From positions 47,460-111,459 of the forward strand of contig JAAXUA010000004.1 in the NCBI GenBank assembly GCA_013336275.1: a stretch of 64,000 nucleotides of DNA, given 5' to 3'. This document shows, in pieces, positions 49,625 through 52,734 of this stretch (position 1 is its first letter; every line of letters starts with the position of its first letter). Both the position numbers and the translations under genes were made by a program. Origin of the DNA: Candidatus Falkowbacteria bacterium. GTDB taxonomy: Bacteria; Patescibacteriota; Patescibacteriia; Patescibacteriales; GWE2-39-37. Below the pieces are notes generated by a model. That model searched no databases and was not told the DNA's origin. It worked only from the letters and a program-made list of their open reading frames with translations.

Positions 49625-52357
49625 CTATATCTTCGGTGCCGCTTCGACCGATACTTCTCCCTGGTCGTCGATAACTATCGTATCCCGGCGCTTGACCTCG
49701 CTCGACAATATCTTGTTGGCGATGACGTTCTCGATGCGATCCTGCAAGAGCCGGCGCAACGGACGGGCACCGAACTTCGGATCGAAGCCGGCTTGAGCCA
49801 AAAGGGCGATGCCCTGCTCGTCCATCCGCATGCGGATGCCTTTTTCCTTCAAGTTCTTTTCGATCTTGCGCAAAAGCAGTTTGGTGATCTCGACAACATC
49901 GTTCTGTGACAATGGCTTGAAGACGATGACGCCGTCAAAACGGTTGATCAATTCTGGACGCATGATCTTGTTCAGCTGCTCGTTGATCAGAACCTCTTTG
50001 ATCTGCTCGACTGGCGTGCCTTTGCGGATCTGCTCCTGGATATACAGCGCCCCGGCATTGGAGGTAGCGATAAGGATACAATTTGTGAAGTCGATAGTAT
50101 GGCCCTGCCCATCAGTCAGGCGGCCGTCATCCATAACCTGCAAGAAAAGATTCAAGATATCGGGATGGGCTTTTTCAAACTCGTCCAGCAGCAAGATGGA
50201 AAAAGGCGATTGGCGTACGGCCTCGGTCAGATAACCCTTATTGCTCTGGTCGCCGATCATCTTGACGATCGAGTCCTGGGCTTGGTATTCGCTCATGTCC
50301 AGGCGGATCATGTATTTCTCGTTGCCGAAATAGACTTTAGCCACGGTCTTGGCCAGCTCGGTCTTGCCGACGCCGGTCGGACCGAGAAAGAGAAAATTGG
50401 CAATCGGCCGCTTGCCCTCGTTCAGCTGGGCACGGGCGCGGCGGAGACTGGCTGCGACCATATCGACTGCCTCGACCTGGTCGATCATGTGTTCGTGGAT
50501 CCTGTTCTCTAAAGTCATGAGTTCCTTGCCTTCATTCATGCCGACCTTGGTCAGAGGAATGCCGGTAATCTCGCTCATGTGCAGGTCGACGGTTTCGCGC
50601 GTGATGACGCGGTCGCTCTTGCTCTTCGATATCTTGACCGCGACCGCTTCGAGGACATCAATGGCTTTGGCCGGCAAAAAGCGGTCATGGACATACTTGC
50701 TGGTCAGATTGACCGCCTCATCCAGGGCGCTGTAAGTGAAGTAAACTTTGTAGCCTCCTTCCAGATAGCCGACCTTGCTCTCAAGCATGATGATCGCCTG
50801 ATTGTGTTCCGGCTCGGCCACAGTCACCTTGCCGAACGAGTTGCCGATCGGCCGGCCTTCGACGGCACGGAGATAATTTTCCTTCGTCACCGTCGCCAAA
50901 CAGAACAGCCGATGCTGCTGGATGGCGCTGACCAGAACGTCAGTCAGGTCCAAGCTCTGCTCGCCGCCCGAAGTGATCCCGGAAATGGTTTCAATATTAT
51001 TGATATAGAGGATGATGTTGCCAGCGCGGGTGATTTCGTCGAGGCAAGTCAGGAGCCGCTCCTGCGCCTCGGCCGGGTTGGCGCCGGAGACGAGACGGCT
51101 GACGTCCAGCTCCAAGAGGCGCTTGTCCTGGAGATACTTCGGAACCTGTTCCCTGACCATCAGCTGGGCCAGGCCGTGAACTATGGCGTTCTTGCCCACC
51201 CCGAGGTCGCCGACCAGCAATACGCCGTTCTTGCCCGATTCGAACGCGCCGAAGATCTCTTCGGTCTCCTTTTCACGAGAGACGCAGAATTCGAGCTTGA
51301 ACCATTTGGCGGCCAGGGTCAGGTCGCGGGCGAAGTTGTTCAGAAAAGGCGTGGCCACCGAAGTATAGGCCTTATCCATATTGGAGGCCGGCTTGAAACG
51401 GGCCATGTGACGGTATTCCTTATATGCTTCGACCAGGCGCTCATTTATCCTGAACCACTGGACAGTATTTGAAAGCTTGTCATTATCTATCTCCTGCTCA
51501 TAAAGGATCTCTTCGACCACATTGTTGAGCTTGAGCGAAGCGACCAAGAGATTGAATGGCTTGACCCTCAACTGCCCGAGGTCGTGCGCCTCAAGATAGC
51601 CTTCAATCAAGGCCTGGCGCACCTCCTTGGACAGCGACAAAGCATTCCCCTGTGATTTTGGCAGCAGCGCCAGCTGATTCTTGAATTTCTTGGTCAAACG
51701 GTTCTCGTCAATATTTAGACGCGAGAATATTGCGCCGACGTTCTCGTCCTGGATCAAGGCGTGAAAAAGATGCAGGATCGTGACCTGCTCGTGGTCGTAT
51801 TGACGGGCCAACGAATAGGCTGCTTCGACGGCCTCGATGGCTTTCATGCTGTAACCCTTGACCACATCGACCTGCGCCTTGCCCTTGAGGTGCCGGATGG
51901 CGTCATCCCAGCCGACAATCGGCAAAGGCGGCTCGTCCGCCTTCAGTCTGGCGATCCTGGGCTTCATAACTGGCTCTTCACTGATACGATAATAAGAAAA
52001 CATCCAAGCTATGGTGCCGATCCAAAAAATAAGAAGCAGCGGATGCTGCTCGAACCAGAACGGCAGATTCTCCGGCATCAAAGCATATTCGGCATTATCA
52101 TAGAACCACCAGCCGAAAGCAGCCAACCCGACCAGCCCGATAAAGATGGCGGCCAAATTGATGACCCGGTCGATCTTCTCCCGGACATAGCCCAGGCCAA
52201 TGGTAATCTGTCCGAGGCGCAACCCCCAATAAAAAAAATGGCCGCGTTCAGCCAAGCCGACGCCACGCCCGCCGCATTCGGCGCAAGCGAGTCCGAATTT
52301 CTGTTTGCCTGAACCGCCGCACGCCGGGCAGATGATATATTTTTTTTCTGAGTCCAT
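49625..52357 (-). CDS. membrane-anchored Clp/Hsp100-family AAA+ ATPase with an N-terminal CxxCxGxG zinc finger and a degenerate first AAA module
   Basis: 910-aa ORF. It has CPACGGSGKQ..CAECGGRG, then hydrophobic helices, then Clp_N-like repeats. D1 reads GDLGVGKN / ILYINN. D2 reads GPTGVGKT / LLLDEFEKAH and is intact. Confidence 0.85.
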   Translation of the reverse strand: MDSEKKYIICPACGGSGKQKFGLACAECGGRGVGLAERGHFFYWGLRLGQITIGLGYVREKIDRVINLAAIFIGLVGLAAFGWWFYDNAEYALMPENLPFWFEQHPLLLIFWIGTIAWMFSYYRISEEPVMKPRIARLKADEPPLPIVGWDDAIRHLKGKAQVDVVKGYSMKAIEAVEAAYSLARQYDHEQVTILHLFHALIQDENVGAIFSRLNIDENRLTKKFKNQLALLPKSQGNALSLSKEVRQALIEGYLEAHDLGQLRVKPFNLLVASLKLNNVVEEILYEQEIDNDKLSNTVQWFRINERLVEAYKEYRHMARFKPASNMDKAYTSVATPFLNNFARDLTLAAKWFKLEFCVSREKETEEIFGAFESGKNGVLLVGDLGVGKNAIVHGLAQLMVREQVPKYLQDKRLLELDVSRLVSGANPAEAQERLLTCLDEITRAGNIILYINNIETISGITSGGEQSLDLTDVLVSAIQQHRLFCLATVTKENYLRAVEGRPIGNSFGKVTVAEPEHNQAIIMLESKVGYLEGGYKVYFTYSALDEAVNLTSKYVHDRFLPAKAIDVLEAVAVKISKSKSDRVITRETVDLHMSEITGIPLTKVGMNEGKELMTLENRIHEHMIDQVEAVDMVAASLRRARAQLNEGKRPIANFLFLGPTGVGKTELAKTVAKVYFGNEKYMIRLDMSEYQAQDSIVKMIGDQSNKGYLTEAVRQSPFSILLLDEFEKAHPDILNLFLQVMDDGRLTDGQGHTIDFTNCILIATSNAGALYIQEQIRKGTPVEQIKEVLINEQLNKIMRPELINRFDGVIVFKPLSQNDVVEITKLLLRKIEKNLKEKGIRMRMDEQGIALLAQAGFDPKFGARPLRRLLQDRIENVIANKILSSEVKRRDTIVIDDQGEVSVEAAPKI

Positions 52358-52362
52358 GAAGC

Positions 52363-52734
52363 TTAAGCGGGGATTATTTGATAAAACACCTCATACAAGG
52401 AAATAATCGGCAGACAGATCCAGGCCGCCAGGAAAAGCAAGGCCAGCCCCAGCCAAAAAACCATTATTACGCCCCTGACGATTATCTGGATGAAGCGCAT
52501 GAAGATGCTGATGAGCACGCCGGCAAAATCGCTTTGGCCATACATCGGCTTGCCGATATTCTTGAGCCAGACCAAAAAACCGATTTCATGCTCCCTTTCC
52601 GCAATAAATTTACCTAATGTTAGTATAAATTTAACCAAACCGGCACCATACCACCATAAGGGAAAATAAAAGACTCCCCACACTATATCCGCGATGATCT
52701 TGGAACTATAAATCGCTACGTTGTTGTTATCCAT
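52363..52734 (-). CDS. hypothetical small membrane protein, immediately upstream of the Clp-like gene
   Basis: 123-aa ORF with 3-4 TM helices and a 5-nt gap to the Clp-like start. Confidence 0.6.
   Translation of the reverse strand: MDNNNVAIYSSKIIADIVWGVFYFPLWWYGAGLVKFILTLGKFIAEREHEIGFLVWLKNIGKPMYGQSDFAGVLISIFMRFIQIIVRGVIMVFWLGLALLFLAAWICLPIISLYEVFYQIIPA

Follow-up and report, generated by a model that had tools for sequence, protein, structure and literature searches.

The 64,000-nucleotide stretch of Candidatus Falkowbacteria DNA considered here (positions 47,460 to 111,459 of contig JAAXUA010000004.1, assembly GCA_013336275.1; hereafter the window) carries on its minus strand a large open reading frame (ORF) of 910 amino acids at 49625..52357, identified from the ORF list together with Pfam, NCBIfam and HMMER searches as a predicted membrane-anchored Clp/Hsp100 paralogue, which will be referred to as TM-Clp. 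Directly upstream, on the same strand and 5 nt away, the ORF list holds a small ORF of 123 amino acids (52363..52734), encoding a helical integral-membrane protein that is its operon partner; both positions are exactly those given in a preliminary description of this DNA. TM-Clp represents an undescribed Hsp100 subfamily that is specific to the candidate phyla radiation (CPR), and no bacterial Clp protein characterised so far shows its combination of features; its mode of operation probably differs from that of all characterised Clps. Judged by its motifs, the first ATPase ring (D1) is catalytically dead and the second (D2) is catalytically intact, while the alignments place the aromatic pore loops in neither of the two. 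Tentatively, and at a little less than an even chance, we read TM-Clp as an ATP-driven switch or remodeller that does not thread its substrates and that acts with the small membrane partner, likely in envelope biogenesis, a reading that draws on sequence comparison and on analogy with the Torsins.

The 910-residue protein is identical (100%) to NTW22731.1, an "AAA domain-containing protein" from a Candidatus Falkowbacteria metagenome-assembled genome, and the neighbouring accession NTW22732.1, a "hypothetical protein", is the counterpart of the 123-residue protein. No curated family model in Pfam or NCBIfam captures either of the two as a family of its own, and literature searches did not find a description of the TM-Clp family.

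Two ATPase rings and their pore loops

Pfam assigns four domains to TM-Clp above their gathering cut-offs, namely PF02861 (Clp_N), PF17871 (AAA_lid_9), PF07724 (AAA_2) and PF10431 (ClpB_D2-small), and their succession (Clp_N, AAA with AAA_lid_9, AAA_2 with ClpB_D2-small) is that of the double-ring Clp/Hsp100 proteins. The top NCBIfam models are ClpB, ClpA, ClpG, ClpK and ClpV, all of which score well under their equivalog cut-offs (ClpB TIGR03346, 525 vs 1232; ClpA TIGR02639, 472 vs 993; PRK11034, 325 vs 1350). The AlphaFold2 (AF2) model of the protein has a predicted local distance difference test score (pLDDT) of 82.9 and a predicted template modelling score (pTM) of 0.71. Foldseek searches with this model gave TM-scores of up to 0.81 against ClpC and ClpB chains, and the best matches in the PDB, by sequence as well as by fold, are ClpC chains.

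Relatives are abundant. The best 120 in the databases, to which the description of top matches was confined, are about 905-920 residues long, share 53-63% identity over their full length and come from Patescibacteria; overall there are hundreds of full-length relatives at 28-63% identity, filed either as "AAA family ATPase" or under the name "ATP-dependent Clp protease ATP-binding subunit ClpC". A first scan of contigs with generic D2 patterns returned mostly canonical Clps, which were used as a control set, and about 10 divergent members of the family. A scan of metagenomes with a family-specific N-terminal alignment yielded 80 loci and, from these, 57 distinct full-length proteins, which are the relatives counted below.

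The active ATPase module D2, with its D2-small domain, spans residues 651-900 (49658..50407, minus strand) and is recognised by PF07724 at 175 bits and by PF10431 at 76 bits. The preliminary description had regarded it as intact on account of GPTGVGKT and LLLDEFEKAH, and indeed sensor-1 (TSN), the arginine finger (NRFD) and sensor-2 (GARPLRR) are also present, the whole set of catalytic motifs being unbroken in 57/57 relatives. The element by which a Clp ring grips its substrate is a different matter. Specifically, the canonical D2 pattern GxPPGY(V/I)GYxEGG is six residues shorter in TM-Clp and its gripping tyrosine is gone: the alignment pairs GSPPGYVGYDEGGQLTE with GDQ------SNKGYLTE, and the six-residue deletion takes out GYVG. 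The alignments leave a remnant loop at residues 700-711 (MIGDQSNKGYLT; 50225..50260, minus strand), which is short, has a polar or acidic character and varies greatly from one relative to another (for example DQSNK, DVDGTL, SPGGTL and QPGQQGT). The tyrosine of GYLTE that follows it is an ordinary ClpB-type residue located after the loop and not the pore tyrosine, and it is unconserved in the wider clade. At the pore-1 position of D1, the HMMER alignment sets GTKYRGEFE of ClpC (KYRGEFE) against GAN-PAEAQE, so that here too the tyrosine is lost. Loss of the D1 pore tyrosine and absence of the D2 GY(V/I)G both extend to 57/57 relatives, and an aromatic residue of any kind occurs in the D2 remnant of just one of them (1/57). 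By contrast, all 56 canonical Clps of the control set keep both pore motifs and, in each ring, Walker A and Walker B.

The D1 pseudo-ATPase module occupies residues 346-598 (50564..51322, minus strand; delimited by HMMER and by motif alignment), and its motifs read GDLGVGKN at Walker A, ILYINN at Walker B and GNSFG in the arginine-finger region, with SGANPAEA as the remnant of the pore loop. A competent D1 would show GK[TS] in Walker A, DE in Walker B and an arginine finger, a set that TM-Clp lacks. In the comparison with Bacillus subtilis ClpC, where HMMER scores the D1 stretch at 141 bits, the motifs stand in register: GDLGVGKN (383-390) faces GEPGVGKT, ILYINN (449-454) faces ILFIDE and GNSFG (505-509) faces ERRFQ. 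The possibility that they are shifted instead of lost is thus ruled out by the HMMER and MAFFT alignments, and the earlier claim that every catalytic D1 motif is substituted stands in that respect; it went too far for the P-loop, where the glycines and the lysine are conserved and the Thr/Ser position alone is lost. Among the relatives, the D1 Walker B glutamate is missing in 57/57 and the RR arginine finger is found in 0/57 (55/56 in the canonical controls), while GK[T/S] is retained in the D1 Walker A of 19/57. With D2 intact throughout, the protein can still be described, as it was at the outset, as having a single active ring. D1 is nevertheless not decaying, because its conservation persists, with a majority fraction of 0.72 vs 0.84 for D2.

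Two further elements that distinguish Clp subfamilies were looked for. A regular-expression search found no ClpP-docking tripeptide of the form [ILVM]G[FL] after residue 650 of TM-Clp, and the segment between sensor-1 and the arginine finger of D2 has a fixed length of 37 residues throughout the family, a segment in which 49/55 canonical Clps carry an xGF tripeptide. Search and length comparison together rule out a hidden ClpP loop and uphold the original observation that an IGF/IGL-type loop is absent. A middle domain (M-domain) had likewise been reported as lacking, and in the alignment residues 402-467 of ClpC correspond to nothing more than the step from 576 to 581 in TM-Clp; the spacing given in support, about 255 residues from Walker A to Walker A, has to be corrected to 276 (lysine to lysine).

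In these respects TM-Clp resembles ClpA, which also has Clp_N, D1 and D2 without a middle domain, shows a similar Walker A spacing and aligns as one unbroken stretch (residues 177-888 of TM-Clp to 10-725 of ClpA). ClpA, however, is soluble, with two competent rings, both aromatic pore loops and an IGL loop for ClpP. In its D2 the protein resembles ClpB/Hsp104, as expressed in the top NCBIfam match (TIGR03346), in the shared GYLTEAV and DDGRLTDGQG and in the absence of a ClpP loop, but unlike ClpB/Hsp104 it is membrane-anchored, its D1 is dead by its motifs, and it lacks the pore-loop tyrosines and the coiled-coil M-domain, and therefore DnaK coupling. ClpE offers a precedent for an N-terminal zinc-binding module on an Hsp100 protein, although ClpC and ClpE differ from TM-Clp in having a short M-domain, a ClpP loop, an active D1 and pore loops, and in having no transmembrane segment. 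For a double-ring protein in which one ring binds nucleotide or holds the assembly together and the other does the work, analogies exist in D2 of NSF and D1 of p97, which TM-Clp D1 recalls in keeping GxxGxGK without the catalytic glutamate; NSF and p97 belong to another AAA clade, however, and their active ring retains the pore-loop aromatics.

In a neighbour-joining tree of the ATPase columns, the entire TM-Clp clade is monophyletic and set apart from all canonical Clps. Divergent members, including the Saccharibacteria-type L005, L028, L043 and L065, share the membrane anchor and the D2 loop deletion, and the ClpP loop and the D1 arginine finger are missing from them as well. Since some of the divergent members still have GKT and DE in D1, the loss of D1 motifs looks progressive when the sequences are compared, and membrane anchoring and pore-loop loss look ancestral. 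The clade is restricted to CPR bacteria, Saccharibacteria included. Four loci (L001-L004; CAZYKS01, CAYQEI01, CAZORP01 and CAYTGF01) that carry the two- or three-gene module are titled "uncultured Gammaproteobacteria bacterium", which probably reflects mislabelled taxonomy or contamination of the bins. Locus L088 has, next to the module, a canonical ClpC-like gene in which all motifs and an IGF loop are present, so that TM-Clp is a further paralogue that does not replace the canonical protein.

Membrane anchor, zinc ribbon and linker

The N-terminus of TM-Clp had been described as a DnaJ-type zinc finger followed by about four hydrophobic helices, and both parts of that description need to be modified. 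Two CxxCxGxG units, CPACGGSG (10-17) and CAECGGRG (25-32), are real and form a zinc ribbon with one zinc centre at residues 8-34 (52256..52336, minus strand; from sequence and alignment), with C10, C13, C25 and C28 invariant in an alignment of 70 sequences. A DnaJ finger, however, comprises four such repeats and two zinc centres, and the ribbon thus amounts to half a unit. Accordingly, PF00684 (DnaJ_CXXCXGXG) reaches 15.6-16.3 bits vs a cut-off of 32.7, with half of the profile covered, and the Anti-TRAP model PF15777 reaches 18 bits vs 32. Both CxxCxGxG units occur in 16 of the 57 relatives, one in 8 and none in 33, and because the motif is missing from so many the ribbon is an accessory feature of the family.

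More widely kept is an amphipathic segment with an FxYWG motif directly before the first transmembrane helix, at residues 41-64 (52166..52237, minus strand; from the alignment): F41, Y43 and W44 are almost invariant in the 70-sequence alignment, and the segment persists even in relatives without the zinc ribbon. The AF2 model shows a beta-ribbon at 7-43 and then one continuous helix at 50-87, made up of the amphipathic part and transmembrane helix 1. The latter covers residues 65-87 (52097..52165, minus strand), with a Kyte-Doolittle 19-residue maximum of 2.13 and an AF2 helix at pLDDT 88-93. Transmembrane helix 2 follows at 104-124 (51986..52048, minus strand), with a 19-residue value of 1.47 (1.5-2.3 in relatives) and an AF2 helix at 106-131. 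Hydropathy and the model therefore agree on two transmembrane helices after an amphipathic helix and not on about four; what stands is the membrane anchor itself, and hence the proposal that the protein is membrane-bound, given that the predicted hairpin is conserved across the clade (majority fraction of helix 2, 0.71). Because basic residues flank both cytoplasmic ends of the hairpin, an N-in, C-in arrangement is predicted, with the zinc ribbon and the ATPase both in the cytoplasm.

Between the anchor and D1 lie a Clp_N-type N-domain (residues 171-320; 51398..51847, minus strand), which PF02861 recognises at 37 bits vs a cut-off of 20.7, and a clade-specific linker motif, KPxxxMDRAYTxVATPxLN, which was delimited by its conservation (residues 321-345; 51323..51397, minus strand). 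Leaving the ATPase modules aside, no stretch of the protein is better conserved than the linker, whose mean majority fraction is 0.81. It is not found in canonical Clps, the Saccharibacteria-type members have it as MNRAWT or IGRDW, and AF2 confidence is low here (pLDDT about 46). The motif contains an aromatic residue and is located at the junction of the N-domain with the top of D1, where it could act as a plug, bind a partner or stand in as a contact for substrates.

The small membrane protein and the gene neighbourhood

The 123-residue protein is marked by the motifs YFPxWWYxxG, WLKNIxxPMYGQxD and MRxxQxxxR, and it matches no family in Pfam, NCBIfam, PADLOC or the PDB. An exhaustive profile search brought in 452 cluster representatives, nearly all of 105-135 residues, and those that bear a name are without exception a "hypothetical protein" of Patescibacteria. 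AF2 predicts three helices (pLDDT 77, pTM 0.47) in a model too featureless for a fold search. The preliminary description had called for a survey of how regularly the small gene accompanies TM-Clp, and the outcome is uniform: among the 72 of 80 metagenomic loci with at least 350 bp of upstream flank, 72/72 have the small gene upstream in the same orientation, at a distance whose median is 3 bp and which is 100 bp or less in 69 cases. In the reverse search, which took four divergent small proteins as starting points, the gene that came next invariably encoded a Clp of 885-927 residues, and Saccharibacteria-type loci hold the same pair, often with 4-bp overlaps. Judged by this gene order, the small protein is a conserved partner of TM-Clp. 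One further protein, P0184 (414 residues), contains the small-protein domain (residues 159-258) and what seems to be a TM-Clp N-terminus (FxYW and two hydrophobic helices); it may be a natural fusion, which would favour physical interaction, or an artefact, but its appearance is that of a frameshift or of a contig cut short, and it was not used as support.

Downstream of TM-Clp, at 48091..49122 on the minus strand, NCBIfam identifies a polyprenyl-phosphate sugar-phosphate transferase of the WecA/MraY superfamily (Glycos_transf_4, here GT4). The match to the WecA model TIGR02380 (1e-33) lies under its cut-off, and the MraY model gives 72 bits only, so that the enzyme is WecA-like and not MraY. 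A GT4 gene follows on the same strand in 47 of the 49 loci with enough flank, at a distance of 100 bp or less in 22/47 and sometimes of 4 bp, and the linkage holds even in the very divergent L003 and L004. In many relatives (L088 at 8445-10001; L118-L168, with GT4 ORFs of about 520-540 residues) the WecA-like protein is fused to QueH, the epoxyqueuosine reductase (PF02677), which elsewhere, as in L082 and L084, has a gene of its own at a distance of 1-2 genes. Linkage to the dcw cluster is also seen: in one sub-lineage the module stands directly after mraZ-rsmH (L087, L157, L160, L161), and in L012 directly before mraZ-rsmH-ftsL-ftsI. Such cases are limited in number (3/80 loci plus L087 and L012) and are given secondary weight.

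The roughly 500 bp between TM-Clp and the WecA-like gene (49123-49624) contain an ORF of 125 residues on the plus strand (49201-49578), which is called as a gene in a 94%-identical relative (L081, 8779-9156) and has no family match; in L082, L087 and L088 the same slot is occupied by small putative opposite-strand genes of 82-133 residues. A Band-7/HflK-like (SPFH) membrane protein is encoded 3 kb from the module at 55724-56479 (plus strand), as it also is in L081. HflK/C modulate FtsH in other bacteria.

Other features of the window lie further away. A low-GC island at 42000-43860 (GC 0.35 vs about 0.52 elsewhere), whose ORFs at 42171-42677 and 42764-43489 have no NCBIfam match, abuts tRNA-Lys(ttt) at 43787-43860 and looks like a small integrated element. 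The 837-residue protein encoded at 25619-28132 (minus strand) shows weak matches to VirD4/TraD-type coupling proteins and to VirB4 and could be an ATPase of DNA translocation or type IV secretion. At 39141-40616 (minus strand) a 491-residue protein of the TIGR04104 family, with an N-terminal CxxC...CxxC zinc finger, is encoded next to a beta-1,2-mannobiose-phosphorylase-like gene (40647-41687, minus strand).

Mode of action and significance

The arrangement that we favour is a two-gene module in which a CPR-specific, ClpP-independent Hsp100 paralogue would act together with a small integral-membrane protein. The zinc ribbon and amphipathic helix lead into the predicted two-helix hairpin, from which Clp_N, D1 and D2 would extend into the cytoplasm; D1 would probably be a ring for nucleotide binding or structural assembly, and D2 the only ring that hydrolyses ATP. 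Threading of polypeptides is unlikely because the aromatic pore loops, which are the grip elements of Clp/Hsp100 proteins, are missing in both rings. Instead, hydrolysis in D2 more likely serves as a conformational switch, or drives a non-processive remodeller, on membrane partners, as has been proposed for Torsins. Envelope-biogenesis proteins are the candidate clients, proposed because of the near-constant WecA-like neighbour and the occasional embedding in the dcw cluster.

Clp/Hsp100 machines thread their substrates by means of aromatic pore loops, and Torsins, which are Clp/Hsp100-like AAA+ proteins, lack such loops, are associated with membranes and depend on transmembrane cofactors (PMC5425593); processive unfolding by Torsins has been judged improbable in a review, with the absence of pore loops as the reason (PMC5425593). 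It is because Torsins combine these properties that a Torsin-like switch is favoured for TM-Clp. The likeness is one of analogy and not of membership. Torsins, which act with LAP1/LULL1 at the eukaryotic endoplasmic reticulum as well as the nuclear envelope, have an N-terminal hydrophobic segment and transmembrane cofactors, but they form a single ring in the lumen of the endoplasmic reticulum, and the arginine finger that they themselves lack is supplied by an AAA-like cofactor. TM-Clp, by comparison, has its own D2 arginine finger (NRFD), and its partner, a membrane protein some 120 residues long, is helical and has no AAA fold. The Torsin-type traits found in it are the loss of the pore loops and the predicted transmembrane anchor, to which the 72/72 synteny would add a cofactor.

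Several points weigh against this interpretation. A conserved, intact D2 motor and a Clp_N domain are equally expected of a true unfoldase, and either non-aromatic loops or the aromatic linker at 321-345 might still contact substrate. The predicted topology derives from hydropathy, AF2 helices and the positive-inside rule, and it is synteny that suggests a physical interaction between the small protein and TM-Clp. Furthermore, the GT4 linkage is missing in Saccharibacteria-type loci, and where it exists it could be inherited gene order and not a sign of function. A stronger version, in which the Torsin principle recurs in CPR bacteria and a non-threading Hsp100 with its obligate small membrane protein forms an envelope-assembly machine that regulates or hands over the product of the WecA-like enzyme, is correspondingly bolder and, in our estimate, unlikely.

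The preliminary description arrived at a ClpP-independent unfoldase or extractor. Its ClpP independence is supported, but the terms unfoldase and extractor are not; it had overlooked that neither ring has its aromatic pore loop in 57/57 relatives. A membrane-bound threading machine of this kind, comparable to Msp1 or the FtsH ATPase and driven by D2 through an axial channel, would make sense of the strong constraint on an intact D2 ATPase, of the Clp_N domain and of an N-terminal anchor that sets the ring at the membrane, and the zinc ribbon would fit in, since ClpX and ClpE use such ribbons to bind substrates or adaptors. It has to contend with an aromatic pore-1 loop in neither ring, although 56/56 canonical Clps have kept theirs, with a D2 remnant whose variability is the opposite of what a constrained gripping element would show, and with the case of ClpB, in which mutation of the D2 pore tyrosine abolishes disaggregation. 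FtsH and Msp1 do resemble TM-Clp in their N-terminal membrane anchor and in the cytoplasmic AAA ring at the membrane surface, but they are single-ring proteins of the classical clade with conserved aromatic pore loops, and FtsH also has a protease domain. A threading extractor would be viable if other elements replaced the pore loops, and it is on this proviso that we still grant it something like one chance in five. One may also picture the ring at the membrane as the subunit that energises a new kind of machine for membrane transport or assembly, in which six transmembrane hairpins and the helices of the small proteins would form a membrane-embedded assembly and D2 would drive export, flipping or hand-over of the lipid-linked glycan made by the WecA-like enzyme. 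The tight order of small protein, TM-Clp and GT4, which recurs in the very divergent L003 and L004, speaks for such a machine, as do the conserved helix 2 and the small protein that is always present. It is improbable all the same: AAA+-driven flippases are not known, the Saccharibacteria-type members keep the two-gene module without GT4 linkage, and the sequences show no sign of glycan or lipid binding.

The names under which relatives are deposited, like the ClpC chains that head the PDB matches, would suit a divergent ClpC that feeds a protease, either ClpP, contacted in a non-canonical way, or one that resides in the membrane, for instance FtsH. This is very improbable for a protein that has no xGF/IGL loop in a segment fixed at 37 residues, is without pore loops to deliver a chain and scores far under the NCBIfam equivalog cut-offs, all the more as L088 has a canonical ClpC, IGF loop included, alongside it. 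That many catalytic and substrate-handling motifs have been lost might also bring to mind a decaying, functionless paralogue, an explanation effectively refuted by conservation, as seen in hundreds of full-length relatives, in the invariant D2 motifs and in the preservation of D1, the linker motif and the operon partner. Two other candidates were rejected. A defence system finds no backing in PADLOC, which returned generic AAA_2/ClpX-like similarity only (DolB, PDC-M37B) and left the small protein unmatched, nor in the synteny, which is that of housekeeping genes. A nucleic-acid translocase was considered on the model of RuvB, which belongs to the same AAA+ clade, and was dismissed since the remnant loops are acidic, polar and glycine-rich, not basic.

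Clp/Hsp100 proteins are the textbook case of AAA+ threading past aromatic pore loops, and the TM-Clp clade has kept the motor and excised the loops. It has done so under strong selection, acquiring a dead D1, a membrane anchor and an obligate membrane partner, and thereby constitutes a natural test case for the abilities of a non-threading Hsp100 ring. For its members, database labels like "ClpC" and "Clp protease ATP-binding subunit" are likely to mislead. A non-threading switch of the kind favoured here would provide a tractable bacterial parallel to the enigmatic Torsins, and a Torsin-like envelope machine, if true, would add a novel mode of action to those of the Clp/Hsp100 family. For the organisms themselves, the module is near-universal in Patescibacteria, whose genomes are tiny and of low redundancy, and is thus probably important for their envelope or their epibiotic lifestyle.

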